Shown piece by piece: positions 1 to 44,277 of a stretch of 44,277 nt of DNA. The notes beneath the pieces were generated by a model that was not told the origin of the DNA, ran no database searches, and saw only the letters and a list, made by a program, of their open reading frames with translations. This DNA comes from a virus. Taxonomy: Duplodnaviria > Caudoviricetes. The DNA is taken from the IMG/VR virus record IMGVR_UViG_3300043344_000001, positions 1 to 44,277 of that record. The stretch is one strand, 5' to 3'. Both the position numbers and the translations under genes were made by a program. How positions within the stretch are numbered: position 1 is the stretch's first letter; each line of letters opens with the position of its first letter.

Positions 1-5
1 ATGCA

Positions 6-35
6 GGAGGGGGGTCATTTTCGCGAGACCCCTCC
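6..35. repeat. GC-rich inverted repeat at the left end, probable genome-terminus (cos-proximal) structure
   Basis: ggaggggggtc ... gacccctcc imperfect hairpin in non-coding DNA at the window edge, beyond the last gene. Confidence 0.45.
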
Positions 36-65
36 CCCCTACCTTCAAATCCCCTCACACTCTGA

Positions 66-314
66 CTAAGAAGACTCGGAACCTACTTCAACCTTTCGGT
101 AGATGCCGAGAACATTCTCAGTTACAATCTCATCAATCGCATCTTCAATCGCAAGACTCTGATCGGCTTCAGACAATTCATCTGAAGTCTTGACGATCCT
201 TGCCAGGAAGCTAGGTGTGTTGTAACCAGCAGCCCTATCAAACTGATACCACTCATCAAACTGAGTGAAAGGATTGAATGGGTTGTCCACTGTTGTTAGC
301 ATGTGTTCTGCCAT
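66..314 (-). CDS. Conserved acidic hypothetical protein (82 aa), directly downstream of the RNA polymerase-like gene
   Basis: ORF with SD GGAGGA immediately after the stop of 324..2993; MLTTVDNPFNPFTQFDEW N-terminus recalled from related actinophages. Confidence 0.8.
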   Translation of the reverse strand: MAEHMLTTVDNPFNPFTQFDEWYQFDRAAGYNTPSFLARIVKTSDELSEADQSLAIEDAIDEIVTENVLGIYRKVEVGSESS

Positions 315-323
315 GTGTCCTCC

Positions 324-2993
324 TTACTCAGCAAGGCTGGTCTTAAGAGTGGTCAGTGATACACCAAGAGCCTCAGCTACCTCAGCCTGGGTGTAGCCTG
401 AGTTAATCATGGCTGCTGCTCTTTGTTTCTTAGCAGTAGTCATGGTTAAGTGAACTTTTGGTGTTGCAAGCTGCTTGACTACGTCAAGATCTGAGTTGTT
501 CAGAATCTGACTTAGTTTGTTACTACTGATTGCACCTGCCTGGATGGCTGCCCACTCGGCACTTGTAATCTCTATGCGTTGTTTAGAGGCACCGGTTCTG
601 ATGCGGGCCTCGGTCAGTGCTAATCCTTTGATCTTCTTGAGTTCAGAAGCTTCCATTTCAGGGTTAGCTTGCCGCTTTTGGGAGACTATGGCGTTTGCTA
701 GGAGCTGGGCGTTTCTTTCTAGGGGTGCGTTTCTAAGGGCGAGGTTCAACTTGGCGTTGAGGGAGGCCACTTCATTTGAGTAGGCGGTCTTTGCAGAAGG
801 TGACCAGGCAGCATCCTTTGTGTTGACCTGTGCTTTCCTTGCTTCATTGGCCAGACTCTTCAGCTTGTTAGAGTGATCTGCATACACCTTCTCAATAGGG
901 GTACCTGAAGAGAGGGTGCTTGCGTCATTGGTCTCTGCTAGCTTAGTAGATCTGACTGTCTTGAACACAGTCCTACCTTTAGCATCAACAAAGTTTTCAC
1001 CTGTGTTGACAAAGACTTTCTTTCCTGTAGTGGGGTCAATCGCTCCACCTTCTCGAGCAGATCGGACCTTCCTATCAAGGACGTCTTGTCTAGAGGTGGC
1101 CTTTGAGATCAGGGTCGAAGCGCCGCCTTGCTTTCTACCCTGATACTTCTGCATCAACTGAGAGATGCCGTTATCAATGGCCGACTGTTTGTAGTTCAGG
1201 TTGTGCTTCTCTGCATCGATGACAACCATGGAGTGCCGAACTGCTCGAGCAAGCTCGGCTGAGTTAGCTCCTTGAATTGTCATGTCTGTAATCAGATTCG
1301 AAACCAACCCCATTTGAGTACCCTTAGTTCGAGCACTCATCTTAGGCATACCCTCATAGCCAGGATAGGAGGCCTTAGGATCGAACCCTTTCAGACCAGC
1401 CAAAGCAGGTGTTGTCTTGACATGACCCTTGTCGTTGGGGATAACAAGAACTGTGTCGCCGTCGAAGTCTGCTCCGGACAGACGTTCAGCTACCTTACTG
1501 TGAATACCTACTGCGTCCTTGGCATTGCCCAGGATCTTGCGCGCCTCAGGATGCCGGTTGTTTACCGTGAGTTCCGGGATCTCAAAGATGCCACCATGAG
1601 GATAGCGAACCAGCGCAACTCGTTCGCCATTCTTGTAATTAGGCGCATAGATCTCAGTGTCCTTCATGGTGTTGATCGGAAGGATGACATGAGACATCTG
1701 TCGAGGAAGTGCAGCTGCCTTCAAGTGCACAGCTGAGGAGTCAGCACTATCTGCAAATCCCTCAAGCAACTTCTTCTTGACCGTGGGGTTGGTCAAGGCC
1801 ATGATCTCGTCGAGCTCTGCCCGCTTACGTTCGAATGTCATGTTCAGCTGAGTCTTAGCTAGAGAAGGACTCTGCTTAGACAACATCTGAGAAGATAGAT
1901 TGCGAGACCAGGTGTCCCAGTTACCTTCCTCATTGACAACGTTCATCACTGAAGTCAGTTTAGTGAGGTTACCCTTTGCGTCCCGTTCACCCAACTGACG
2001 AACGACAGCACCGAATGGGCTATCAGGATCATCAGTCATCTTCTTCATGGCGTCGAGCTTGTTGCCTGTATTGCTCTTGTTCGTGTTAAACATGAGATCC
2101 ACCCCTGCAGGCAGATCATCCTTGTACATCGCCATGCCCTTGAGGTAGTGCGTACCATCAACAGCGATTCGCACCTGTGCATAGCGTCCGCCACCCAGAG
2201 AAAGATCTGCTTTTCCTGGTCGCACGTAGATGACGCCATCAGCATCTGCGCCACCTTGCTCAGCATACCGAACAGCGACACGCTTGGAGGCGATAGACAA
2301 AGGAGGCAGAATCCCGGACCACGAACGACCGCCATCGTCGGAGTAACCAGAGATCTGATGAATCTTATCTTTGTTGGAAGCGATGTCTCGGTACGTAGTT
2401 CCAGGAGGAGCTAGAACTTTGACCAACGTTTTGTTGTTGGTGCCCAGCTGATCTACCTGAATCGTGTGGACTTCGTACCCTTGTTCACGGAGAAGCGCGA
2501 CGGCCACAGCGAGCTTCGTACTGCTGATACCGATGTGGTGTTCCACACCAGTACCGATGTCAATGAAACCCTTTTTTGCCACCTGATCCTTGAGCATCGC
2601 CGACGTAGTTGCGAGAACGTCAGCTTTGTCTTTCTGACCCGGAGCAAGCAAAGCTCGAACCGAAGACTCGTTGATGCCCATGCGTTGACCAATGGCAAGG
2701 TTTGAATAGCCCTTGTCCTTGAGACGCTGAGCCATCGCAATGTCAGCCTGCTTCTGCTCAGTCTTAGCAATCGACTTAGCAGCCCGAAGCATCGTGGTTG
2801 TGAACGGATGTTCTGGAGTGCTGAAACCTTTGCAGATCTCGGCTTCACTCATTCCCTGCTTTCGAAGATTCTCGATAGTGTCAAGGAATGTGCGATTACG
2901 CTCGCTCTGAGTCTCACCTGAACCCCATGGGTAACGCCCAGACTTCCGGAGAATCCCATAGTGAGCAAGATACGCGGACTCATCAATGATCAC
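324..2993 (-). CDS. Putative single-subunit two-barrel RNA polymerase (QDE-1/RDR/YonO-like) with N- and C-terminal HTH domains
   Basis: Motifs in order: ADGVIYV, YAQVRI..YLKGMA, RYPH (1596-1607), LSGADFDGD (DFDGD at 1455-1469), MGLVSNLITD, HSMVVIDAEKH; HTH-like segments KGYSNLAIGQRMGINESSVRALL and SGYTQAEVAEALGVSLTTL. Confidence 0.75.
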   Translation of the reverse strand: MIIDESAYLAHYGILRKSGRYPWGSGETQSERNRTFLDTIENLRKQGMSEAEICKGFSTPEHPFTTTMLRAAKSIAKTEQKQADIAMAQRLKDKGYSNLAIGQRMGINESSVRALLAPGQKDKADVLATTSAMLKDQVAKKGFIDIGTGVEHHIGISSTKLAVAVALLREQGYEVHTIQVDQLGTNNKTLVKVLAPPGTTYRDIASNKDKIHQISGYSDDGGRSWSGILPPLSIASKRVAVRYAEQGGADADGVIYVRPGKADLSLGGGRYAQVRIAVDGTHYLKGMAMYKDDLPAGVDLMFNTNKSNTGNKLDAMKKMTDDPDSPFGAVVRQLGERDAKGNLTKLTSVMNVVNEEGNWDTWSRNLSSQMLSKQSPSLAKTQLNMTFERKRAELDEIMALTNPTVKKKLLEGFADSADSSAVHLKAAALPRQMSHVILPINTMKDTEIYAPNYKNGERVALVRYPHGGIFEIPELTVNNRHPEARKILGNAKDAVGIHSKVAERLSGADFDGDTVLVIPNDKGHVKTTPALAGLKGFDPKASYPGYEGMPKMSARTKGTQMGLVSNLITDMTIQGANSAELARAVRHSMVVIDAEKHNLNYKQSAIDNGISQLMQKYQGRKQGGASTLISKATSRQDVLDRKVRSAREGGAIDPTTGKKVFVNTGENFVDAKGRTVFKTVRSTKLAETNDASTLSSGTPIEKVYADHSNKLKSLANEARKAQVNTKDAAWSPSAKTAYSNEVASLNAKLNLALRNAPLERNAQLLANAIVSQKRQANPEMEASELKKIKGLALTEARIRTGASKQRIEITSAEWAAIQAGAISSNKLSQILNNSDLDVVKQLATPKVHLTMTTAKKQRAAAMINSGYTQAEVAEALGVSLTTLKTSLAE

Positions 2994-3553
2994 AGGGCCT
3001 CCATCCTTAGTGCGTTGATCCGCTTGTCGAGGGTGATGATCTTGTCCATGACGTGAAAGATCTCGTCCACCTCAGGGACAAGAACCTGAACCTTATCGCC
3101 TTGATAGATTCGAAGCTCCATCTCGATGTCCATGGGACGGAACCGATACTCGAGACAGAAGATCGCAGCATAGATCTTGAGCTGCTCCATCGAAGGCCGG
3201 CTGGTTCCAGTTTTGAGATCGTGGATCCTCAGCTTGTTTCGCTTGAACCCGCACGTGTCCGCGGTGCCGAAACAATTGTCCGAGTAGTACAAGATTTGTT
3301 CGGACGTCATGCGGTAGCCAATGGCGTCGTTGACGTAGAGATTGAGAGTCTTCTCAGCCTCAGGCAGCTTGACGCCGAGACGAATCAGCTGATGCGCCAG
3401 AGCATGGAGCTCAGTACCACGCTGCGCTGCGACACTAGCGAAGAAGACACGCTGCATCTTTTCTTCGTCGTAGTTCACCCAATGGTAGTTACTTGGGCTG
3501 AGCAGGGCGTGCTTGTTCGCTATCTGCTGAGGCGAATATTTGGTGAAGTCCAC
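2990..3553 (-). CDS. Cas4-like / PD-(D/E)XK exonuclease
   Basis: HALLSPS, RGTELH, E..L..S..FGTAD..IHDLKTG..QLKIYA motifs; GTG start at 3553 preferred, ORF open to 3571. Confidence 0.8.
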   Translation of the reverse strand: MDFTKYSPQQIANKHALLSPSNYHWVNYDEEKMQRVFFASVAAQRGTELHALAHQLIRLGVKLPEAEKTLNLYVNDAIGYRMTSEQILYYSDNCFGTADTCGFKRNKLRIHDLKTGTSRPSMEQLKIYAAIFCLEYRFRPMDIEMELRIYQGDKVQVLVPEVDEIFHVMDKIITLDKRINALRMEAL

Positions 3554-3815
3554 GAAAAACTTCTTCCTCATTTGAAGGGTAGATGAAGACCGCGAAAGAC
3601 ATCACATTGAGCAAGTTGACGTAGTACCGTTGGTTCGGCTGCTCTGATGCGTTTTTCGAGTTCTTCACTTCAAGCATTGCCCACTTGTCTCTGAGAAAGA
3701 TCGATAGATCCGGAACTCCCGGCATGTATCCCGAGTCGTTCTTCAAAATGAAGCAACCAGGGAACTCATGGCGAAGTCTCACGATCAAATGAGACTGATA
3801 AACGCTTTCTCTCAT
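3489..3815 (-). CDS. VRR-Nuc domain nuclease
   Basis: MRES.YQ, GVPDL, LEVK, QPNQ motifs of the VRR-Nuc PD-(D/E)XK family; SD GGAGGA. Confidence 0.85.
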   Translation of the reverse strand: MRESVYQSHLIVRLRHEFPGCFILKNDSGYMPGVPDLSIFLRDKWAMLEVKNSKNASEQPNQRYYVNLLNVMSFAVFIYPSNEEEVFRGLHQIFASADSEQARPAQPK

Positions 3816-3848: not shown

Positions 3849-3882
3849 ACTCCTTCTATTATAAGCTGCGATTATTGTACTA
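3849..3882 (-). promoter_or_regulatory. Probable promoter for the VRR-Nuc / Cas4-like / RNA polymerase operon
   Basis: Minus strand reads TAGTACAATAATCGCAGCT-TATAAT-AGAAGGAG: perfect -10 hexamer, divergent relative of the cassette promoter. Confidence 0.55.
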
Positions 3883-6072: not shown

Positions 6073-6118
6073 GGGTCCTTTCGTAGGGGTCTCATTATAG
6101 GGCATGTTTCTTATGCGA
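6073..6118 (-). promoter_or_regulatory. Cassette promoter plus RBS, copy 1
   Basis: TCGCA-TAAGAA-AC-ATGCCC-TATAAT-GAGACCCCTACGAAAGGACCC. Confidence 0.85.
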
Positions 6119-7354: not shown

Positions 7355-7407
7355 CACCTCTAGGAAAGAGCCAGAACATGCCGCTCTGACCCAAACCTAC
7401 AAACGTC
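7355..7407 (-). terminator. Hairpin element with conserved flanks, copy A
   Basis: GACGTTTGTAGGTTT-hairpin-TTTCCTAGAGGTG; flanks identical to 7682-7733. Confidence 0.65.
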
Positions 7408-7648
7408 AGACGTCGACGACGGGTGCGAGTTCCGCGACAGCCTTGTTGGCCCACATGGCCGAGGTCTCGAGCTCGGTGCGAGCCACCGCTTTCGCCCGTC
7501 CGTTCGGGAGTGCTTCCTGCAGGAACAGGTCCATCTCGACGAAGCGAGCACGAACCTCCTGGTGCAGGGGCATCGTCACGTCGGTACCCTTGTGGAAACC
7601 GAAGCGCTGACGACTCTCTTCGCGGTCGGGCATTTCTCCAAGACCCAT
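7406..7648 (-). CDS. Acb2/Tad1-hairpin-like small protein (candidate nucleotide-signal sponge)
   Basis: RFGFH...LPNGRAKAVARTELETSAMWANKAVA pattern; ATG 7648 with SD AAGGAGG. Confidence 0.55.
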   Translation of the reverse strand: MGLGEMPDREESRQRFGFHKGTDVTMPLHQEVRARFVEMDLFLQEALPNGRAKAVARTELETSAMWANKAVAELAPVVDV

Positions 7649-7681
7649 TGGTCCTCCTTGATAGATCGACAGAGGCCTTAT

Positions 7682-7733
7682 CACCTCTAGGAAAAGACAG
7701 GTCCCCGTAACCCTGTCTAAACCTACAAACGTC
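7682..7733 (-). terminator. Hairpin element with conserved flanks, copy B
   Basis: GACGTTTGTAGGTTT-AGACAGG..CCTGTCT-TTTCCTAGAGGTG. Confidence 0.65.
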
Positions 7734-15065: not shown

Positions 15066-15961
15066 CAGTCTCCGATCTTGTCGTAGATGACGCCATCCAC
15101 GTTGAAGTCGAGACGGATGGCCTGCTCGCGGCCGTTGACGAAGGCCCGGGACCGCTCGCGGTTGGCGTTGAAGATCCCGAAGTCGACGAAGTTGTCTCCG
15201 TCCTTGCTGACGATCCAGCCCACGACCGCGCCGGCCTTGGTCCGCTCGATGCCCAGCTGGTCGTAGACCTCGTTCAGGAACAGGTGGCCCTTGGCGCGCA
15301 GCTTGTCGTTCGCGTAGTTCTGCTGCGCCCGGAGGAAGAGCATGTTGTACTCCGCCTCCCGCTGGAAGTCCGGGCAGAGCTCGTCGAAGAACTTCGAGTA
15401 GACCGAGAAGCCGTTCGGGTCCAGCTCCTTGATCGTCTTGGCGACCGGTCCCTCCTTCGTCTCCTCGATGATCTCGCGCTCGACAGTTCCGTATCGGAAC
15501 TCGCGGTCCTTGTCCTCACCGTACTCGCCGATGACCCGACGACGGTACTCGTTCCAGCCCTTGTCGAGGGCCGCGTAGGCCGCTGTGACGCCCGCCAGGC
15601 GACGATTGAGGACAACGTGGGATCCGGTGAGGGCCGCGATCGAAGCGACGCCCACGAGGACTGCAGGGCCGTACAAACGCGAGATGTTGATGACGGCCTT
15701 GGTGTAGATGAGGACCTTGTCCTTCCGGCGGTCCTCCTCGGTGTACTTGGCGAGCTGAGCCGACTCGATGGTCAGGACGTCCTTCTCGACGCCTTCGAGA
15801 ACCGCCTCGAGCTTCAGCGTCGCCTTGCTGGCCAGAACCACGGTCGTGACGATGCCGACCACGCCGGCGCCGAACAGCAGAACGGGCGAGTGCTTCTGAG
15901 CGGTGAGAATCTGTCGTCCCATCTTACTGGTGACGACATTTGCCAGTGCTTTGAAATTCAT
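15065..15961 (-). CDS. DUF6353-like protein, paralog 1
   Basis: KHSPVLL.GAG.VG; Y.PA; LFLNEVYDQLG..VVGW..LDFNVDG. Confidence 0.8.
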   Translation of the reverse strand: MNFKALANVVTSKMGRQILTAQKHSPVLLFGAGVVGIVTTVVLASKATLKLEAVLEGVEKDVLTIESAQLAKYTEEDRRKDKVLIYTKAVINISRLYGPAVLVGVASIAALTGSHVVLNRRLAGVTAAYAALDKGWNEYRRRVIGEYGEDKDREFRYGTVEREIIEETKEGPVAKTIKELDPNGFSVYSKFFDELCPDFQREAEYNMLFLRAQQNYANDKLRAKGHLFLNEVYDQLGIERTKAGAVVGWIVSKDGDNFVDFGIFNANRERSRAFVNGREQAIRLDFNVDGVIYDKIGD

Positions 15962-16098
15962 CAGAGTTTACCTTCCTCGCGAAACTTCAGGACGATGGCC
16001 AGGAGTTGTTTGGGTGGCATCTTGTCGACCTTCCGACGCCATGCCTTGGTTGGGAATATCGTCTTGACGAGTTCCCGCATTGAGTGTTCGTTGAGCAT
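15961..16098 (-). CDS. Small basic protein (45 aa, MLNEHSMRELVKTIFPTKAWRRKVDKMPPKQLLAIVLKFREEGKL)
   Basis: Translated by hand; starts 2 nt after the upstream stop; its TGA overlaps the next ATG. Confidence 0.75.
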   Translation of the reverse strand: MLNEHSMRELVKTIFPTKAWRRKVDKMPPKQLLAIVLKFREEGKL

Positions 16099-16099
16099 G

Positions 16100-16741
16100 T
16101 CAGTCGAGCTGTTCGGGCTTGGGGAGACTCAGCAGGTATCCGTCACGAACACGAACTGCCTCGGATCCACGCAGATCCGTCCAGCCGTATTTCTCGTCGG
16201 TGAAGTTTCCGGAAACTCCGACGAGTTCGTACAGATCTGAGACGGTTGCCTGCTCGTATCGGGCAATGATGTCGTAGAGACGATCGATGACCGTCACTGC
16301 TTCCACTCGAGTGGCGAGAATGATCTCGTCAAAGTCGTGCGAAGCCCTCGAGCGCCGGCTGATGTTCCGCGGTTCCTCTCGCTGACGCTGTTGGGGGTTA
16401 GGGGCGAAGCGGTTGTAGCTGACGTAGCCGCTGTGACCACCTGGACGAATGCCCGTCCTACGGCTGGTTGAGCGAGCCTCACCGAATATCATTCGTTCGA
16501 TGCCTTGGCTGACGGCGTCGGCGATCATGTCCTTTGCGGCCGGCAAAAGAACATCCACCAACACGTAGTTCATGACTCCGCGGGTGTCTCCACCGAAGAA
16601 CGTCTCGACGAACCGCTTACCCAAAGGCTTCTTTCGAGTAACCACCGTGCCTGTGGTGACCTGCTCGATTTTTTTCGCGGTTTCGGTGTTCTCCTCAGGA
16701 GCCGCTTTCGCCTTATGACTATTGGTTGGAAACTCTTCCAT
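16100..16741 (-). CDS. Conserved hypothetical protein
   Basis: FPTNSH N-terminus; C-terminal ATVSDLYELVG..DEKYGW module related to the DUF6353 C-terminal domain. Confidence 0.8.
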   Translation of the reverse strand: MEEFPTNSHKAKAAPEENTETAKKIEQVTTGTVVTRKKPLGKRFVETFFGGDTRGVMNYVLVDVLLPAAKDMIADAVSQGIERMIFGEARSTSRRTGIRPGGHSGYVSYNRFAPNPQQRQREEPRNISRRSRASHDFDEIILATRVEAVTVIDRLYDIIARYEQATVSDLYELVGVSGNFTDEKYGWTDLRGSEAVRVRDGYLLSLPKPEQLD

Positions 16742-16761
16742 TTTGCCTCGCGATCCAAGGA

Positions 16762-16800
16762 GAAAAACTAAGAGGCCGTGTTAGGGCTTCCTAGTTTTGA
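16762..16800 (-). terminator. Cassette terminator hairpin
   Basis: TCAAAACTAGGAAGCCC-TAACAC-GGCCTCTTAGTTTTT on the minus strand. Confidence 0.6.
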
Positions 16801-16804
16801 GTAG

Positions 16805-17053
16805 TTACTTCTGGAGCTTCTTCGTGACATTCTCTGTCCACCAGTTGGCGACAGCTTCGACCTTCGCGTCCGTGTACTTCTTCGATGCCTCAGCGACGAG
16901 GGCACCCATCACGTAGCCGCCCGCGGTCATCGACACGAGGTCGACGGTGTTGCGGGGAGTGGCGTTGTTCTGGATGACCTGGCTGACGATCTTGGAGGTA
17001 CCGGCGCAAACGACGAAACTGACAATGCCTTTGGCAACATCAAGTTTGTTCAT
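16805..17053 (-). CDS. Small hydrophobic cassette protein (82 aa)
   Basis: Lies between cassette promoter copy 2 and a terminator. Confidence 0.8.
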   Translation of the reverse strand: MNKLDVAKGIVSFVVCAGTSKIVSQVIQNNATPRNTVDLVSMTAGGYVMGALVAEASKKYTDAKVEAVANWWTENVTKKLQK

Positions 17054-17058
17054 GATTG

Positions 17059-17104
17059 GGGTCCTTTCGTAGGGGTCTCATTATGAGGCATGTTTTTTTC
17101 GCGA
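17059..17104 (-). promoter_or_regulatory. Cassette promoter plus RBS, copy 2
   Basis: TCGCG-AAAAAA-AC-ATGCCT-CATAAT-GAGACCCCTACGAAAGGACCC. Confidence 0.85.
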
Positions 17105-17224
17105 GAAATGGGCGCATGTTCGGGCATCGGCTGTCGTGAATAAGTCAGCATCCGGGAAAGAGCCTCGACCCCTCAGAAGGACTCTTGCTGACCCCCACAT
17201 CTCACTTTGTGCTGGTGTAAAGCT

Positions 17225-17368
17225 TTAGCGGTACGAGCGGTTGGAAGAGTTGTTGGCGGTGCGGATGACCACCCAGATCAGCCAGAGGCCGCCGGTGAGG
17301 ATGGTGAGGGTGAAGTCCAGCAGGAGACTGCCGAAACCGTACTGCTTCTGGCGACGTCGACGAGACAT
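17225..17368 (-). CDS. Small membrane protein (47 aa, MSRRRRQKQYGFGSLLLDFTLTILTGGLWLIWVVIRTANNSSNRSYR)
   Basis: Translated by hand; SD GAAAGGA; LTILTGGLWLIW hydrophobic motif. Confidence 0.8.
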   Translation of the reverse strand: MSRRRRQKQYGFGSLLLDFTLTILTGGLWLIWVVIRTANNSSNRSYR

Positions 17369-17408
17369 GACTGATCCTTTCGGTGATCTGGATATGGAAC
17401 GGGACTGT

Positions 17409-18017
17409 TTAGCCGTGGTTCTTGTAGCGGAGTTTCATGAACTGTTCGCTGGGCATCTCGAGGAGCTCGGCTCGGGTGTAGTCCTCGACGTACTTGACGG
17501 AGCTATCGTTGGGGTTCTTCATCGCCTCTTCGAAGATACTCGCCTTGATTCCCAGCGGGTCTTCCTCCATCAAGACCCTGCCGAGGGGTTTGAGATTGAA
17601 GGCCGGCGCGGCCTCCTTGGGCAGCTCGACGAAGCGCGTACTCTCCCTCTGGTTCTCGACCAGGGCCGCCGGAAGGATTCCCTTGACGAACTCCACCATC
17701 TTGTCGGCCTGGAAGAGCTCGAGGAACAGCTCGACGTAGGCCTCGGACTGGGCGAACGAATTGCGGATCTCGTCTGACTTGATGAACCGTCGGCCATCCT
17801 CGTGACGCTGACCCACCGCCAGCAAGAGGATGTCCTCGTAGGCCCTGAGGATCGCCGACCGATCGTCGGCCGAGATGATCGCCTTCAAGTAGTCCTCGAG
17901 GCCGGTCTTGTGCGTCAGCTCCATCCGGGCGAGTTCGGCCTTGTTGATGTTGAAGTAGAACGTCTCCGTGAGCTCGTTTCCGTCGAGGTCGTGGAAGGTG
18001 ATGTCCTTTTTGAGCAT
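17409..18017 (-). CDS. Conserved hypothetical protein
   Basis: MLKKDITFHDLDG..ETFYFN..KAEL; SD GAAAGG. Confidence 0.8.
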   Translation of the reverse strand: MLKKDITFHDLDGNELTETFYFNINKAELARMELTHKTGLEDYLKAIISADDRSAILRAYEDILLLAVGQRHEDGRRFIKSDEIRNSFAQSEAYVELFLELFQADKMVEFVKGILPAALVENQRESTRFVELPKEAAPAFNLKPLGRVLMEEDPLGIKASIFEEAMKNPNDSSVKYVEDYTRAELLEMPSEQFMKLRYKNHG

Positions 18018-18034
18018 TTTGTGCCTTTCGGGCT

Positions 18035-18069
18035 AAAAGGAGAAGCTCTGTGTGGTTAACAGAGCTTCT
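18035..18069 (-). terminator. Cassette terminator hairpin
   Basis: 10-bp stem AGAAGCTCTG/CAGAGCTTCT, loop TTAACCACA, then CCTTTT. Confidence 0.7.
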
Positions 18070-18104
18070 ACCTTAGAGGGTCTTTAGACGTTGGAACGAA
18101 TGGA

Positions 18105-18284
18105 TCAGACGGTCTCGGGGGTCGCCTCGACGGTCTCCTCGGAACGCGACTTCCGCCACTTGACCACGGCGAAGACGGCGCCCGCAGCGATGAGGCTGGC
18201 GGCGACGACGATCACAGCGGTCTTGGTGGTGGGGGCGTTCGAGGCGGCATCGGTGACGACGGTCTCGAGCTCGGGGGTTTCCAT
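18105..18284 (-). CDS. Small single-pass membrane protein (59 aa, METPELETVVTDAASNAPTTKTAVIVVAASLIAAGAVFAVVKWRKSRSEETVEATPETV)
   Basis: Translated by hand; SD GGAAGGA after promoter copy 3; strongly GC3-biased codons. Confidence 0.8.
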   Translation of the reverse strand: METPELETVVTDAASNAPTTKTAVIVVAASLIAAGAVFAVVKWRKSRSEETVEATPETV

Positions 18285-18289
18285 TTTGT

Positions 18290-18338
18290 GGTCCTTCCAT
18301 TTAAAGGGGTCTCATTATGAGGTGTGTAGATCTTGCGA
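18290..18338 (-). promoter_or_regulatory. Cassette promoter plus RBS, copy 3
   Basis: TCGCA-AGATCT-AC-ACACCT-CATAAT-GAGACCCCTTTAAATGGAAGGACC. Confidence 0.85.
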
Positions 18339-19097
18339 TCAGCTGAGTCGGTTGTAATCCCGAATTGGAGCGATCGCAAACGTGAGGGTCATGCAAGGCC
18401 GACCGTCTTCAGACATCGTCGCTGAGAACTTCAGGTCGAGTTGCTTGTCGACGTTCCAACCGACCTCGTCCGAGACGCCCGTCTTGGTGAGACCGATCAG
18501 GTAGTAGAAGTCGCTCAACGATGCGTACATGTCGTTGAGAACTGTGCCGTTGATGTCGTTCTGAGCCTTCCGCAACGTCTCCATGTCGCTGTGGAAATAT
18601 CGTCCGGAGTACATGTCATGACAGAGGACGTCTCCGCCCCCCATAATGACAACTTCGCGGGACGGGGGATTGTTCGTCACCCGGTCCTGAGCGATCTCGT
18701 CACGGACAGCTTGCTCCTTGCGTTCGCCGATCTTCTCGACGACTTTCGCCTTGTACTCATCGAAGGCCTTCTCGGATATGGCGACCATCGCAGCCATGGC
18801 GGCAGCTCGACGAGTACCAATTCGGTTGGCCATGATGATGCAGGCGATCGTCGTACATCCCATGGCGGCAGCCGGGACGTATAGCTTCCAGGTTGTTTGT
18901 ACGCGTTCCTTGGGTGTCAGCGAACGCTTCTTGATGTCCTGCTCCTCGTAGAAGATCTGGTACGAGGCTTGGAAAGAAGCCTTTCCGGTCAGATATGCCG
19001 TAGCTAACGTTCCGGTGACTCCGATGGCGGTCAGAATCGCAGGAGAGTTGTCTGCAGCGAACTTGGTAACTCTCGCAACTAGACCACTAAAATTCAT
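18339..19097 (-). CDS. DUF6353-like protein, paralog 2
   Basis: DNSPAILTAIGVTG; YVPAA; DMYSGRYF; ASLSDFYYLIGL..DEVGWN. Confidence 0.8.
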   Translation of the reverse strand: MNFSGLVARVTKFAADNSPAILTAIGVTGTLATAYLTGKASFQASYQIFYEEQDIKKRSLTPKERVQTTWKLYVPAAAMGCTTIACIIMANRIGTRRAAAMAAMVAISEKAFDEYKAKVVEKIGERKEQAVRDEIAQDRVTNNPPSREVVIMGGGDVLCHDMYSGRYFHSDMETLRKAQNDINGTVLNDMYASLSDFYYLIGLTKTGVSDEVGWNVDKQLDLKFSATMSEDGRPCMTLTFAIAPIRDYNRLS

Positions 19098-19359
19098 CGA
19101 TTGCCTTTCGAAGATCTTGGAGGAACTTCTCGTTCTTCGCGTCGCGAATGTTCCTCCGAGCTACCATTCGTGCGACAGGTATCCCTAAGGCTTCTCGACG
19201 CCTCACTTCTGCACGTGCTTTGCCGATCCGTCGTACGCGCCGCCAGTATCGGAATTCGATGATCACGATGTAGAGTCCGAACAGAAGTAGCGTCAAGAGC
19301 ATACAGACGCCGAGAGCGATCCCCACGGCCATCAGCGCGACAAAGGTGATCTCAGCCAT
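19087..19359 (-). CDS. Membrane protein
   Basis: Long N-terminal hydrophobic segment followed by a basic region; TGATG coupling. Confidence 0.7.
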   Translation of the reverse strand: MAEITFVALMAVGIALGVCMLLTLLLFGLYIVIIEFRYWRRVRRIGKARAEVRRREALGIPVARMVARRNIRDAKNEKFLQDLRKAIDEF

Positions 19360-19628
19360 CACATACTCCAAGTTGGTTTGGCGTATTCGAATGTGAGGGC
19401 CCGCGCCAAAGCCTTGTTCTCACGATATGACTGCACCAGCTTTTGCATGTAGTCACTCTTGTCGTTGCGCCGGCGGCGATGAGGGTGTTGCTTCTTGGGG
19501 TGCTTTTCCCTTTGCTCCTCGAGAACCTCCATGATGATCGCCGGCGCAACCCAGAAGAAGAACGCAACGATCAAGCAGAACACGATCACCTTGAAGAGCA
19601 GAACGAGGAAGTTCAGAAACTCAAGCAC
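19359..19628 (-). CDS. Membrane protein
   Basis: GTG with SD GAAAGG; hydrophobic N-terminus and basic C-terminal half. Confidence 0.7.
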   Translation of the reverse strand: MLEFLNFLVLLFKVIVFCLIVAFFFWVAPAIIMEVLEEQREKHPKKQHPHRRRRNDKSDYMQKLVQSYRENKALARALTFEYAKPTWSM

Positions 19629-19651
19629 GACGGGAACCTTTCGATCGAAGA

Positions 19652-19686
19652 CGAAAACCTAAAACCCTTGTGGGGTCTAGGTTTGA
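19652..19686 (-). terminator. Cassette terminator, near-identical to 19982-20017
   Basis: TCAAACCTAGACCC-CACAA-GGGTTTTAGGTTTTCG. Confidence 0.7.
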
Positions 19687-19700
19687 TGATCTTGTAGGGG

Positions 19701-19823
19701 TCAGGCTTCGATGGTGTCAACAATCTTCTTGGCGATCAGCTGCGTTGCGACCACAACCGCGATGTTGGCGGTGATGATGGCAGCGAGCTTGACGGCCGGC
19801 TTGTTGGCAAGGTTCTTCAGCAT
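19701..19823 (-). CDS. Small hydrophobic peptide (40 aa, MLKNLANKPAVKLAAIITANIAVVVATQLIAKKIVDTIEA)
   Basis: Translated by hand; SD AAGGAG after promoter copy 4; followed by a terminator. Confidence 0.8.
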   Translation of the reverse strand: MLKNLANKPAVKLAAIITANIAVVVATQLIAKKIVDTIEA

Positions 19824-19828
19824 GGCTT

Positions 19829-19871
19829 CTCCTTGGTAGGGGTCTCATTAAGAGCCATGTAAAACCTGCGA
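19829..19871 (-). promoter_or_regulatory. Cassette promoter plus RBS, copy 4
   Basis: TCGCA-GGTTTT-AC-ATGGCT-CTTAAT-GAGACCCCTACCAAGGAG. Confidence 0.8.
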
Positions 19872-19872
19872 C

Positions 19873-19931
19873 AAAAATAAGAGTCCTGGCACTTGTTGCT
19901 CAGCAGGATGTACGGCCTTCCGTTTCCTCTC
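19873..19931 (-). ncRNA. Putative ~55-nt structured small RNA
   Basis: Promoter copy 5 is followed by no ORF, but by hairpins ACGG/CCGT and TCCTG/CAGGA and a TTATTTTT tract. Confidence 0.5.
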
Positions 19932-19956
19932 ATTATAGGCCTTGTGTTTTCTGCGA
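19928..19956 (-). promoter_or_regulatory. Cassette promoter, copy 5 (no RBS block)
   Basis: TCGCA-GAAAAC-AC-AAGGCC-TATAAT-GAGA. Confidence 0.8.
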
Positions 19957-19981
19957 ATCTCCCCCGGGAATTTTTCCAAAT

Positions 19982-20017
19982 CGAAAACCTAAAACCCTTG
20001 TGGGGCCTAGGCTTTTG
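19982..20017 (-). terminator. Cassette terminator, near-identical to 19652-19686
   Basis: TCAAAAGCCTAGGCCC-CACAA-GGGTTTTAGGTTTTCG. Confidence 0.7.
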
Positions 20018-20020
20018 AGA

Positions 20021-20236
20021 TCAGCGAGCGATGGCCTTTGTTGCGATCTTCGCAACCTCAATTGCGCCTTTGGTTACCATCAACAGAAAGACCAATCTTG
20101 AAAGCTGTCCAGCAACATCGACGACGATCTCGGCATATGCCTGAGCGATATCGATATTGTTCTGAGCTTCTTCAGTGGTGGTTTCTGACGTGGCGTCCTT
20201 GACGAGCTTGACGTTGAACGAACGATTCTTGAACAT
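20021..20236 (-). CDS. Small cassette protein (71 aa) with a hydrophobic C-terminus
   Basis: Lies between promoter copy 6 and a terminator. Confidence 0.8.
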   Translation of the reverse strand: MFKNRSFNVKLVKDATSETTTEEAQNNIDIAQAYAEIVVDVAGQLSRLVFLLMVTKGAIEVAKIATKAIAR

Positions 20237-20240
20237 TATA

Positions 20241-20285
20241 GGTCCTTTCGTAGGGGTCTCATTATAAGCTGAGTAAACCCTGCGA
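20241..20285 (-). promoter_or_regulatory. Cassette promoter plus RBS, copy 6
   Basis: TCGCA-GGGTTT-AC-TCAGCT-TATAAT-GAGACCCCTACGAAAGGACC. Confidence 0.85.
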
Positions 20286-20289
20286 ACGC

Positions 20290-20323
20290 CAAAAAAGAGA
20301 AGGCGTGTATTTTCTACACGCCC
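20290..20323 (-). terminator. Cassette terminator hairpin
   Basis: GGCGTGTA-GAAAA-TACACGCC then TTCTCTTTTTT on the minus strand. Confidence 0.7.
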
Positions 20324-20355
20324 CCGCTTCCGATTTCCTGGATTAGATCAGTAAG

Positions 20356-20748
20356 TCACTTGGTCTTCAGAATGAAGCTCAGGGCTTTGGAGGTTACAAC
20401 GTTTGCACGTTCGTAGCCGATGATCAGCAGGATTCCGGCGATGTTCGCGGCAACGATCGCCAGCGTATCCGGGCTCACACGACGGGATTTCTCGAATTCC
20501 TTCGTCTTGAGGTCCATCTCGAGTTCGGCAAGCTTTACTTTGGAGTAGTTCTCCATTTCAGCGCTTTCCGCCTCGATCTTCTTCAAGAGGAAATTGTCTT
20601 CGGTCTCCTTCATCTTGTAGAGCTTGGCTAGCTGGTCGACCATTTTCTTGTACTCGTCGGAATCACTGTTTACACCGGCCATTTCGGAAAATACTCCGTT
20701 GATGGCCTCTTCGAGCCCTGTGAGTTCAGTAGGGACGTTAATGCGCAT
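20356..20748 (-). CDS. Coiled-coil protein with a C-terminal hydrophobic segment
   Basis: VSPDTLAIVAANIAGILLIIGYER..VVTSKAL; follows promoter copy 7. Confidence 0.8.
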   Translation of the reverse strand: MRINVPTELTGLEEAINGVFSEMAGVNSDSDEYKKMVDQLAKLYKMKETEDNFLLKKIEAESAEMENYSKVKLAELEMDLKTKEFEKSRRVSPDTLAIVAANIAGILLIIGYERANVVTSKALSFILKTK

Positions 20749-20754
20749 AATGAT

Positions 20755-20797
20755 TCCTTTCAGAGGGGTCTCATTATACGACGTGTTTCCTACGCGA
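20755..20797 (-). promoter_or_regulatory. Cassette promoter plus RBS, copy 7 (first promoter after the late genes)
   Basis: TCGCG-TAGGAA-AC-ACGTCG-TATAAT-GAGACCCCTCTGAAAGGAA. Confidence 0.85.
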
Positions 20798-20806
20798 CCC
20801 GATTAT

Positions 20807-21169
20807 TCAGGGAATTCGAGGGGTGATCTTGAAACTGGCTTCCTTCTTCTGGTCGAGCTCGTCGACGTCCGAGTTCAGGATCAGCGAGAACATCTTTTTC
20901 CCGCCTTCGCTGTCGACCTCGATGGTCCCGTCGTATTTGGCTTCGCTGTTCTCATACCACTTCGTGCTGATGCTCAGAATGACACCCAGAAATGCATCGA
21001 GAACAGCGATCGTTCCGACGATTTCGGTGGCATTCGGGAGGTGCCAGATCTGACTCAGCGAGAAGTATGCTGAAGCAACCGCCGGTAAGAAGATCTGGGC
21101 GATGAACTTCAGCAGGTTGTACGACCGATCGGTCAGGAACGGCAACTTCGGGGTCTCGGGGGCAGTCAT
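20807..21169 (-). CDS. Holin (Dp-1-like)
   Basis: YNLLKFIAQIFLPA..YF.LSQIW.LP...IVGTI..LDAFLG.IL.IS...Y pattern with two TM segments. Confidence 0.8.
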   Translation of the reverse strand: MTAPETPKLPFLTDRSYNLLKFIAQIFLPAVASAYFSLSQIWHLPNATEIVGTIAVLDAFLGVILSISTKWYENSEAKYDGTIEVDSEGGKKMFSLILNSDVDELDQKKEASFKITPRIP

Positions 21170-21522
21170 TACGCCACTCCTTGATTTCTCTGAATTGGGA
21201 CGATCTCAGCATATCTTCCGTGAGACCTCAGTGGGAGCTGAGACACGTCCGCCATGACACGTTCGGCCACCCCGTTACCACCGATCGCCTTGTACGGCTC
21301 GTAAAGGTACTTCCGGTAGTCTTCGTACTCGTCTTTTGAGATCCAGCCTCGCTCGATGTAACCCAGACCGAGACTCACGATCTTGTCGTATGCGAGACCC
21401 ATCAAGAGGGTAGAAGTAGCACCCTTCTGATTATCGCGCTTCTGGATATATGCCCAGAACCCAGAAGACGCGACAATCGAAGCTGCCGCTGTTAAGATTA
21501 ACGGCACCCATTGCTCCATCAA
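21169..21522 (-). CDS. Membrane protein, lysis-associated
   Basis: N-terminal TM (ASSGFW); YEPYKAIGGNG motif; adjacent to the holin. Confidence 0.7.
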   Translation of the reverse strand: MMEQWVPLILTAAASIVASSGFWAYIQKRDNQKGATSTLLMGLAYDKIVSLGLGYIERGWISKDEYEDYRKYLYEPYKAIGGNGVAERVMADVSQLPLRSHGRYAEIVPIQRNQGVA

Positions 21523-30690: not shown

Positions 30691-31410
30691 TTATAGCGAA
30701 CTGATGGTGTAGGAGTCAGCGTCGATGTAGACCGCAGACGGCCAACTGATTTGGAACGTTGTAGCGTCGAGCATCTGAATTGCGCTATCTGGCCCAATCG
30801 CAGTCCAACTACCATCACCGTGATCGATGATTCGAAGAATGGAATTGGCTTCGAAAACCTCGAAGAGCTCCTCAGGCGTTGGCAGGCGCGCACCTTCGGC
30901 CGGCGTTCCATACAGAATATCTTCGAGATCGGCTACGGTCGATGAATATGCATCTGTTGTATCAACAACTAAATGCGCACTCAGTTTTGCTTCCGGAATA
31001 ACAATCGGTTTGGTAGTAAAATCCCAAATGAAGGGGTCTGTCTCCGATTGCTTTCTGGAAATTTCCCCCCGGGGAAAATCGGCGTTATAAACCAGGTGAA
31101 TCTTGTAGCCTTCGTTGTACCTAACACGATAACTCAACCCGAAACCTTTTCGTCTGGTCTGGGTGAGAATATCGCTAAGAAGGCCTTCTGGATAGGTAAA
31201 CGCCTGGATTGACCCCGAGAAATCACTTACTCGACGACGAAGATGCGTTTTTACGCCGTCAATATATCTTGTTCGAGCTTCTTCGTTGGACGCATTCTCT
31301 TGTACAGAGATTAGACCATTCCAGGCTTCCCCGGGACCACTTTGCGGATAGAATACTCCGCGATCTAGTCCTATCTCATACGCTCGAGCATCCCAGGTCA
31401 GTCGAGTAAT
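30691..31410 (-). CDS. Tail-tube-like protein, paralog 3, with apparent ATT start
   Basis: Frame is open upstream of the listed TTG (31137) and reads ITRLTWDARAYEIGLDRGV..AWNGLISV..YIDG, aligning with the other two tube paralogs; SD AAGGAGGT precedes ATT 31410. Confidence 0.75.
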   Translation of the reverse strand: MTRLTWDARAYEIGLDRGVFYPQSGPGEAWNGLISVQENASNEEARTRYIDGVKTHLRRRVSDFSGSIQAFTYPEGLLSDILTQTRRKGFGLSYRVRYNEGYKIHLVYNADFPRGEISRKQSETDPFIWDFTTKPIVIPEAKLSAHLVVDTTDAYSSTVADLEDILYGTPAEGARLPTPEELFEVFEANSILRIIDHGDGSWTAIGPDSAIQMLDATTFQISWPSAVYIDADSYTISSL

Positions 31411-31421
31411 GACACACCTCC

Positions 31422-32060
31422 TTAACTCGAGAATATGCCGATCAATTCGTTTGGGGTCGGCAATCTGGCTGATGTACTCGCATTCCCGTAGATGATGTCC
31501 TCAACATCTGAGAGGGTATCAGCTTCAGTGTAGCGAGAATCAATGATCAGATGTGCGGTACGCTTGTAGCCCGTAATCGTGGGCGGCAAGGTAGTGATCG
31601 ACCAGCTGAAGGCCGCGGGATCCACTGATTCCGTGACCGTGTTGTGATTTCGTGCAGATGAGCCGGCCAGTGCGTTGTAGACCAGATGGATCTTGTATGC
31701 GTGATCAGAACCTTGAATGTCGTTACCGACCTTGGACCGGTATGACAACCCGAATGACTTCTTCGGTTGGTTCGTCACGAACAGACCATTCTGGATGGGT
31801 TTGACGCCTTCACAGACCCCGAACGCAGAAGGTCTGTTGAATGCGGCGATCGTTGCCTCGAATTCCTCTGCAGTTGAGAGGTTAAGGTACTTGATCCCGT
31901 CGATGTAGTACGGTTTCGGATCTCCGCCCGACGGAGACTCGGATACTGAGATTAATCCCGTCCAAGCAACGCCGGGATTGGTGTCTACGAATAGAACACC
32001 ACGATCGATGCCGGTTTCGTAGAAGCGTTCTCCAACAGCATCCCAAGAAAGTTTGGGCAC
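31422..32060 (-). CDS. Tail-tube-like protein, paralog 2
   Basis: LSWD..GERFYETGIDRGVL, FGLSYR, YKIHLVYNA, shared with the major tail protein. Confidence 0.85.
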   Translation of the reverse strand: MPKLSWDAVGERFYETGIDRGVLFVDTNPGVAWTGLISVSESPSGGDPKPYYIDGIKYLNLSTAEEFEATIAAFNRPSAFGVCEGVKPIQNGLFVTNQPKKSFGLSYRSKVGNDIQGSDHAYKIHLVYNALAGSSARNHNTVTESVDPAAFSWSITTLPPTITGYKRTAHLIIDSRYTEADTLSDVEDIIYGNASTSARLPTPNELIGIFSS

Positions 32061-32071
32061 TTATCCTCCTC

Positions 32072-32614
32072 TCAACCTCGAGTGCCGTACTGAGCCTTTC
32101 GCTGTGCATTTAGGTCTCGTTGCTGCTGAGCGATTTGTCCAGGGCTCAGTTTCTTCTGTGGAGCGTTCTTCTGATTGCAGACCTTGACCAGCGTCAGCAA
32201 TTTGTTCAGATGCCAATACTGGCACTCAAATGGGATACCCAATGAGATCATCCAGTAGTAGATCAGCTCCGCTGTGATGATCTCTCGGCTTCGTTTCGGC
32301 TTCTCCTTGTCATTGAACCAAGTCGCCGTCATCTTTGCGCCGATGTAGTTGTTGATCGTCTCGTAGTGCTTGGCCGTTAGGTTGTCGTAAAGTCCAGGAG
32401 GAACCTCCGAGGAAATTACCATGGCTTGGATATACCATAGTGTCTCCTCGGAGGTCTTTTCTCCGGAGCCAAGAAACGGTTTTTCGAATTCTGACTCCCA
32501 TTTTGACAGTGAAACTAGAGAATGCTCGAGAACCAGAGAGAATGACTCCTGAGTTACGAATTCACCCTTCAGTTCGTCAAAACCCTCTGCCAGAATCACA
32601 GGAAGGGTAAGCAT
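32072..32614 (-). CDS. Tail assembly chaperone
   Basis: Follows the major tail gene; [32 protein letters not shown]. Confidence 0.7.
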
Positions 32615-32632
32615 TCTCTAATCTCCTTGTCT

Positions 32633-33517
32633 TTACACGAAGGTGAACAGCCAGTCGTCGTCCGTGACGGCCGGGAACTTGTAGCCGGTAGCCGGGTGGG
32701 CCGTGACCACGGTGTTGCCGGTGATCGGGCCGTAGGCGCCGGCCGGAACGACCTCGCCGTTGACCTTGTAGACGACGCCGGTGGTGCCAGGGATGGTGAT
32801 GATGTCCGTGGTCGAGTTGTACGTCGGGACGCCCGGAGTGACCTGGGTGATGGTGCCGGCGAAGAGCGCGATCACGTCGGCCGGGAGGGGCAGAGACGGG
32901 TCGGTGCCGACCGTGCCATACAGAAGCTCCATCAGGACGTCCAGAGCGTCGGCGTCGACCTTGGTCGAGTCGATCGTCAGGATGGCCGTCGGCTTGTAGT
33001 CGACGGAAGCGATCGTTCCGACGTTGACCGGCGTGGTGGTGATCTCCCACGAGAACGTGATGGCCTCAGGCGAGTCGTTGACCGTCCCGTAGGCACGCTC
33101 CGATGGGGCCGCCTGGGCGCCGTAGACCAGGTGCAGCTTGAAGCCGAAGCTGGTGCCGTTGACGTCGTTGCCCATCAGGGTGCGGTAGCTCAGACCGAAC
33201 GCTTTGCGGCCCTGCTGACCGATCGTGATACCGACCTCGGGCGATGCGGTGCCGTCGTACTGGCCCCACTCCTCGGGGTACGTGAAGGCCTCGAGGGTGG
33301 CGCCGAAGTCCTCGGCGCTGACCAGGTTCAGGTACTTGATGTTGTCCGCGAACTGCGGGCTGGATTCCGCGCCCGACGGAGACTCGGTGACCGACACCAG
33401 ACCGTTCCAGGCCACGCCGTTGTCGTAGACGCCGTTGTTGTCGGGCATGTACAGAACGCCGTGGTCGATGCCGGTCTCGTAAACCCGTTCGCCGGTCTGA
33501 TCCCAAACCAGTTGCAT
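32633..33517 (-). CDS. Major tail (tube) protein with C-terminal Ig-like domain
   Basis: LVWDQTGER.YETG.DHGVLY, ADNIKYLNL, EAFTYP, FSWE; very high GC3 consistent with high expression. Confidence 0.9.
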   Translation of the reverse strand: MQLVWDQTGERVYETGIDHGVLYMPDNNGVYDNGVAWNGLVSVTESPSGAESSPQFADNIKYLNLVSAEDFGATLEAFTYPEEWGQYDGTASPEVGITIGQQGRKAFGLSYRTLMGNDVNGTSFGFKLHLVYGAQAAPSERAYGTVNDSPEAITFSWEITTTPVNVGTIASVDYKPTAILTIDSTKVDADALDVLMELLYGTVGTDPSLPLPADVIALFAGTITQVTPGVPTYNSTTDIITIPGTTGVVYKVNGEVVPAGAYGPITGNTVVTAHPATGYKFPAVTDDDWLFTFV

Positions 33518-33528
33518 GTGGTTGCCTT

Positions 33529-33834
33529 TCAGAAAAATAGTTCGAACACGTCGTGGTTGAGATTGTTCGCGGCGAAGTACCTGTTGTAGGTACACATCCG
33601 CAGAGCGGCGACTTTTTCCAGAACGTCGATGTCCGGATTCTGGCTAATCAAGGTCACCTGGTACCGCTGAGTGTAGCGGTACGGGTCATTGCCAGCGAAC
33701 TGAGTAATCGCGTTGTCTCGTCGGTAGACAATGCACGGATACTCCATCTGCACACTCGCCGGAGGTTGGAAATATACCTTGTCCGTACCCAAGGTAGCTT
33801 CAAGAAGTGTCTGTAGATCAAGCCGTGGGGCCAT
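33529..33834 (-). CDS. Tail terminator
   Basis: VYFQPP...YPCIVY motif; synteny. Confidence 0.75.
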   Translation of the reverse strand: MAPRLDLQTLLEATLGTDKVYFQPPASVQMEYPCIVYRRDNAITQFAGNDPYRYTQRYQVTLISQNPDIDVLEKVAALRMCTYNRYFAANNLNHDVFELFF

Positions 33835-39884: not shown

Positions 39885-40238
39885 CTACTTTTTCCTTAGG
39901 CCGCCGATCATCATCTTTCCGGCCGGCGAATTTGCGAAAGCGACGGCCTGATTGACCGTACCGCCAAGGTTCAGAATGTCCTGTATGACTTTGAGCGCCT
40001 TCGTCGTTTTGGATGGATTCAGGCGCGTGAACTGCTGCTCCAAATTCATCCGTGTGATGAGGTCCTGCATCTCTTTGTTGCTTAGAGATTTAGTTCCTCC
40101 AGCTTTGACCTTCTTCTTGATCGAGGAAGCTCTCGCTGAATCATCGGACGCGGGGACCGAAGAGGAGCTCGATCGCCGAACACCCCACTTCATTCCTTTG
40201 ACGCCGAAATGAGCGAGAATGTCGTCGGCTGTTTTCAT
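39885..40238 (-). CDS. Basic protein with LAHFGVKGMKWGVRR N-terminal motif (DUF7211-like)
   Basis: Motif seen directly; LSNKEMQ..I.RMNLEQQF segment. Confidence 0.8.
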   Translation of the reverse strand: MKTADDILAHFGVKGMKWGVRRSSSSSVPASDDSARASSIKKKVKAGGTKSLSNKEMQDLITRMNLEQQFTRLNPSKTTKALKVIQDILNLGGTVNQAVAFANSPAGKMMIGGLRKK

Positions 40239-44196: not shown

Positions 44197-44277
44197 TGTT
44201 GGACTCCTTCTCGGTACTTCGAGGTGGGTTTAAACCAGAAAGTTTAAGGGAAAAATCCCTCCGGGGCTATTTTTAGG

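Follow-up and report, generated by a model that had tools for sequence, protein, structure and literature searches.

We regard the window, the whole 44,277-nucleotide stretch of DNA analysed here, as a probably near-complete genome, despite a CheckV completeness estimate of 74%, because the two termini of this linear virus record coincide, except for the end overhang, with those natural to cultured relatives. All recognised genes share one orientation and run from the head and tail genes through a central block of small genes to a primase-polymerase, a helicase, nucleases, the gene studied here, and one small gene. The gene studied here (324..2993, minus strand, GTG start) encodes a single-chain protein of 889 amino acids. 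It is preceded, in a conserved order, by exonuclease and endonuclease genes (2990..3815, minus) and followed by a conserved small gene identified by its profile match to phrog_4303 (66..314, minus). This placement after the helicase and nucleases, at the right end of the genome, is the one typical of the family to which the protein belongs. The nearest cultured matches are Streptomyces phages (64-66%), and it is from these relatives that we infer an actinophage. Elsewhere, the non-structural arm carries a gene with an Acb2/Tad1 hairpin domain (7406-7684, E 8e-13), which by its sequence likely encodes an anti-defence protein. Three ORFs within 30691-33595 match a single major tail protein family, phrog_2645, whose first part lies at 31422-32060 and second part at 30691-31137, with a gap between the two.

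The first-pass annotation read the protein as a single-subunit two-barrel RNA polymerase from a series of short motifs, all of which we find in the order proposed within the 889-residue ORF: ADGVIYV (residues 251-257), YAQVRI-x6-YLKGMA (271-288), RYPH (463-466), LSGADFDGD (505-513), MGLVSNLITD (561-570), and HSMVVIDAEKH (587-597). The two-barrel superfamily has eight invariant residues, namely four Asp, three basic residues, and one Pro (PMC2919709), and all eight are present as D252, R275, K285, R463, P465, D509, D511, and D513 when equivalence is assigned by motif order. In an alignment of 150 sequences that are 45-76% identical to the window protein, R275, K285, R463, P465, D509, D511, and D513 are conserved in every sequence, and D252 in 148, with Glu in the remaining two. 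The invariant set includes the three Asp of the DFDGD metal-binding loop (residues 509-513; 1455..1469, minus).

Residues 229-722 of a structure model of the polymerase (pLDDT 85.6) align to QDE-1, and residues 232-706 to gp62 of P74-26; a fold search against 48,161 solved chains returned QDE-1, ZmRDR2, and P74-26 gp62 as the top three. The model predicts a pair of double-psi β-barrels forming one active site, in a two-barrel catalytic core that spans residues 229-722 (828..2309, minus). Residue conservation and predicted fold together thus support the two-barrel polymerase reading. The predicted fold does not discriminate between a DNA and an RNA template, the two best matches being QDE-1 and RDR2. 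Ahead of the core lie an N-terminal tag (residues 9-25; 2919..2969, minus), which is related in sequence to the DUF7211 tag of head-module proteins and is likely flexible because the model has low confidence there, two tandem HTH modules seen by profile and model (residues about 42-117; 2643..2870, minus), and a predicted winged-helix module (residues 118-211; 2361..2642, minus). A further HTH, again seen by profile and model, closes the protein (residues 853-888; 330..437, minus). Domain profiles and the predicted model hence bear out the HTH segments at both ends. Their supposed resemblance to sigma region 4 may be no more than a generic HTH signal: the C-terminal helices pass the cut-off of Sigma70_r4_2 (26.5 against 25.7; E 5e-6), and HTH_23 scores higher on these same helices (E 4e-7).

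The protein is a member of the 1706 ORF75 family, with a full-length match to the phrog_4291 profile (E=0, 1363 bits, residues 4-888), 39% identity to orf75 of Lactococcus phage 1706, and 66% identity to RosaAsantewaa gp54. The family appears in 250 GenBank phage records, 249 of which cover at least 80% of the protein. Clustering at 90% identity leaves at least 8000 clusters, and bacterial genome assemblies contain the gene in 316 stretches; AUV56548 of FP_oengus is also a member. The GenBank records include Streptomyces phages of 42.7-43.6 kb, so the gene is not unusual for a 44-kb actinophage, as the first-pass annotation had supposed. PHROGs labels phrog_4291 'RNA-dependent RNA polymerase', RefSeq likewise uses RNA-dependent, and in actinophage clusters AM, AU, AW, BI, CC, DJ, and EL the label is 'HTH domain protein'. 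The phage 1706 protein has been presented as one of five YonO-like families (PMC2919709), and the accessible text of another account (10.1101/842583) reports the family as a possible RNA polymerase with an RdRP profile match, HTHs at both ends, and DxDGD. The family is therefore already described computationally, in print in 2010 and 2021, and the window protein is a further member; the PHROGs match with E=0, the wide spread, and the two papers indicate that the first reading rediscovered a described family. The literature searched, with most subscription papers outside its reach, held no bench study of the 1706 ORF75 family, and the accessible parts of the prior family accounts tie neither virion loading nor the element described below to it.

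The window holds seven copies of a rigid element, TCGC-N7-AC-N6-TATAAT-G, which read TCGC-N7-AC-N6-hexamer-GAGA and all lie on the coding strand, with none on the other; 200 shuffles gave a mean of 0.005 copies, for a pattern derived from these same sites. These promoter-like copies (all minus) are found at 20767..20797, the first after the holin gene, at 20255..20285, 19926..19956, 19841..19871 (with the hexamer CTTAAT, ahead of an unlisted 39-aa ORF), 18308..18338, and 17074..17104, and at 6088..6118, ahead of the helicase region. Six of the seven precede an ATG by 19-22 bases (7 in one case), most of them with a purine-rich stretch resembling a ribosome site before the ATG, and all face genes. 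A degenerate copy (3852..3882, minus) precedes the polymerase start by about 890 bp, at a position where relatives also have a copy, and a scan of the whole window found no full copy in the structural arm. At the right end, a hairpin (1..40, minus) has the upstream half of the motif (TCGC-N7-AC) in its loop and is directed over the genome end at the structural arm; a late promoter active only after end joining, a terminator, and a packaging site are possible roles for it.

Several further observations concern these regions. Among 52 rows examined (right ends of L007-L085), 30 hold TCGC[AG]-N6-AC in the loop of the end hairpin. In the central block, from 19823 downward and at 17054-17408, ORFs shorter than 60 aa, one of them directly behind a motif copy, escape ordinary gene calling. 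An inverted repeat of the AAAAAT-CCC-GG-GGG type at the left genome end (44250-44277) appears again at about 19955-19980 (minus), just upstream of one motif copy, and this recurrence near a motif copy is also seen in G001, G002, G008, and RosaAsantewaa.

We scanned 20 genomes with a matrix trained on 77 sites of the same set, in which hexamer positions 19-23 were left unscored, and obtained 128 coding-strand sites and no non-coding ones in 16 genomes, with C1, G2, C12, and T24 present in all 128. The matrix scan gave no sites in four Bacillota-host phages (Lactococcus, Faecalibacterium) of the 20 genomes, and a de novo search of these same four recovered the same geometry in 10-15 copies each, with the first box changed or lost in the Lactococcus phages and the hexamer CTTTAT in FP_oengus. 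The element thus retains its geometry in phages from two host phyla. A further 106 loci of at least 8 kb gave 168 coding versus 7 non-coding matches, and CGC is found in 123 of the 168 (1.6 expected) even though the first box was unscored.

A copy lies within 1.5 kb of the polymerase start in 60 of 98 loci. When loci were picked by the motif only and contigs of at least 40 kb were taken among the first 80 of 160 such loci (36 of 37 examined), the polymerase was encoded in 33 of the 36, and in 23 of the 24 that are at least 90% complete. Five bacterial genomes (24.2 Mb), chosen for holding the gene and with contigs matched by coordinates, gave 38 element matches, of which 35 lie at most 28 kb upstream of a prophage polymerase gene on the same strand and 3 lie elsewhere. 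The element is a lineage-private signal confined to phages with the polymerase gene, a result that does not in itself identify the reader protein. Co-occurrence does not prove recognition, because the lineage passes on the gene as well as the element, and another gene of the lineage could encode the reader; between the HTH helices and the element we found no clear covariation. Prophages of Lachnospiraceae-type genomes (L385, L387, L390, L391, L351, and L377) each carry the gene and 4-7 motif copies.

We hypothesize, with a probability of about 0.6, that the protein is a DNA-dependent polymerase which recognises the element without a sigma factor and whose templates are the non-structural arm and its own operon. 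Both its DNA dependence and the reading of promoters by its HTHs are what we infer, and a motif private to the lineage makes both more likely. The enzyme would carry out Mg-dependent RNA synthesis at DFDGD on a DNA template, and its own HTH and winged-helix modules would read TCGC-N7-AC-N6-TATAAT-G without a sigma factor. Transcripts starting from the element would cover the small genes of the central block, the genes for replication, and the polymerase's own operon. For the late arm, which contains no full copy, three routes are conceivable: transcription from the half site near the genome end once the genome has circularised, read-through, or the host polymerase.

The element might instead be an early or middle promoter that the host RNA polymerase uses, probably helped by a phage activator at the TCGC box (T4 MotA acts at about -30), and the phage polymerase a non-virion enzyme for the late arm, like YonO; we consider this, the main rival reading, rather unlikely. 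The hexamer bears on it in both directions: its commonest form at sites of actinobacterial type and at those of Lactococcus P078 is TATAAT, which fits a host sigma factor, whereas whole genomes are dominated by hexamers such as TTTTAT, CTTTAT, AGTAAT, TGTAAT, and TTAAAT. For host primary sigma factors, the A at -11 is the most important base. The corresponding position holds A in 99 of 128 sites from the 16 genomes, and in 43 of 124 sites from genome-derived loci, where the matrix included the hexamer and TTTTAT is commonest; of the 81 sites there that lack this A, 20 have some TANNNT nearby. Spacing fixed to the base and a geometry shared by phages of two host phyla also argue against a host reader, as do sigma70-type sites in window positions 15900-21200, which number 2 against 2.2 expected, neither of them in the motif register. 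On the other side, the Vardy motif was taken as a sigma70 -10 element (PMC9671010), and a late role for the phage polymerase would agree with the position of its gene, which closes the replication arm and, once the genome is circularised, lies directly ahead of the structural arm, and with YonO, which transcribes SPbeta late genes according to the accessible part of the published work.

A repeat between genes of cluster AU phages (Giantsbane), which may not be the same element, was read as a recombination boundary in the accessible text of 10.1101/2020.01.10.891226; as far as their accessible text goes, neither this source nor PMC9671010 links the motif to a polymerase. That proposal, together with the helicase and nucleases that neighbour the polymerase gene, would fit an active DNA-dependent polymerase that serves a purpose other than mRNA synthesis, for instance the priming of replication, the element then being an origin-type repeat or a boundary for recombination. 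Such a role is improbable, however, given that the phage encodes a separate primase-polymerase and that the copies face genes and stand before ATG codons at the short distances given above. It is more improbable still that the enzyme is an RNA-dependent RNA polymerase, as its database labels say. QDE-1 and RDR2 are its best folds and it has a weak Pfam RdRP match (PF05183, residues 500-597, E 0.03), but that match scores 13.5 bits, below the gathering score of 23.8, and the gene belongs to a dsDNA tailed phage and encodes four predicted DNA-binding modules. Moreover, YonO, which shares the motif set, strictly prefers DNA templates in the part of the literature accessible to us.

With a sigma-free phage polymerase reading the element, a few copies of the enzyme would be loaded into the head via the N-terminal tag and would start early transcription after injection, a step to which we give slightly better than even odds. 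The GenBank label of the 39%-identical homologue, 1706 orf75, is 'structural protein'. The polymerase tag, LxHYG...SGRYPWG, resembles the DUF7211 tag on terminase-adjacent proteins, and DUF7211-type tagged proteins are found in 15 of the 16 genomes scanned, with none in 1706. The window encodes one just before the terminase gene (39885..40238, minus), and its homologue in genome G026 (E 1e-10) carries a polymerase-type tag in place of the DUF7211 tag, so that the two tags look interchangeable. The protease-capsid fusion (34160-36145) contains nine loose hydrophobic-x-His matches resembling the start of the tag, six of them in the acidic capsid-protease linker between residues 134 and 248, and the repeats of this linker may be protease sites.

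A further hint of virion carriage comes from portal fusions. In three contigs from two sources, the catalytic core follows a portal or a long protein of head type and shows Lys-to-Arg drift and loss of terminal HTHs. In P0137 the portal is fused to the core, and P0149 and P0272 show the same fusion and share parts of the P0137 N-terminal region, each being a single contig; P0137 and P0149 lack the terminal HTHs and keep the catalytic motifs. To judge from these sequences, the fused core looks like a capture by another phage group. In the homologues P0136 and P0138, a 2H phosphoesterase-like domain at the N-terminus precedes the tag. On induction, temperate relatives have no virion to supply the enzyme and must produce it anew; virion carriage is therefore not the sole route, and a host-driven route exists.

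Our wider picture is tentative, and we rate it somewhat below even odds: a very large lineage with Actinomycetota and Bacillota hosts would have a self-contained transcription system, in which a 100-kDa two-barrel polymerase with four DNA-binding modules is loaded into the head by means of a short tag with a protease site, enters the cell along with the DNA, and reads a three-part promoter of a geometry kept across host phyla, its core having been captured and portal-fused by another phage group. The protein itself is catalogued already, and the interest lies in this testable model of promoter and loading. If true, early expression would be freed from host sigma factors, which would help to explain the host jumps of the lineage, and the system would reveal by what means a minimal relative of the cellular polymerases locates promoters, provide actinomycetes and gut Clostridia with an orthogonal expression tool, and correct the 'RNA-dependent' and 'HTH protein' labels. 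The family is very common, and it has cultured members whose hosts are easy to handle in the laboratory. With a candidate promoter and the catalytic residues in hand, promoter recognition by a sigma-free two-barrel enzyme is approachable with one purified protein.

Compared with the 1706 ORF75 family, with which it has in common the gene order and the HTHs at either end, the window protein shows no notable difference. QDE-1 of Neurospora and plant RDR2 are eukaryotic RNA-silencing enzymes, whereas the window protein falls below the Pfam RdRP cut-off. The crAss-like phi14:2 gp66 is, in the accessible accounts, also a single-chain two-barrel phage enzyme, which we take to be virion-carried and much larger than the window polymerase; it was absent among the best 50 matches listed in the fold search. 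YonO of Bacillus SPbeta is likewise a single chain of comparable length (839 aa), with the same order of short motifs. An hhalign comparison gave no significant match (probability 0.9%) with a single-sequence template, which is insensitive, and strict membership of the YonO family is unproven at the sequence level. YonO serves late genes, whereas the element described here marks the non-structural arm. In the accessible reports, the tested phage enzymes of the clade (YonO, and gp96 and gp64 of Thermus phage P23-45) extend RNA on DNA, and by analogy they may be taken as working precedents for the window polymerase. P23-45 has both a virion enzyme, gp96, and a non-virion one, gp64 (P74-26 gp62); gp96 is fused to the tape measure protein, whereas the 1706 ORF75 family instead has terminal HTHs and a short N-terminal tag.
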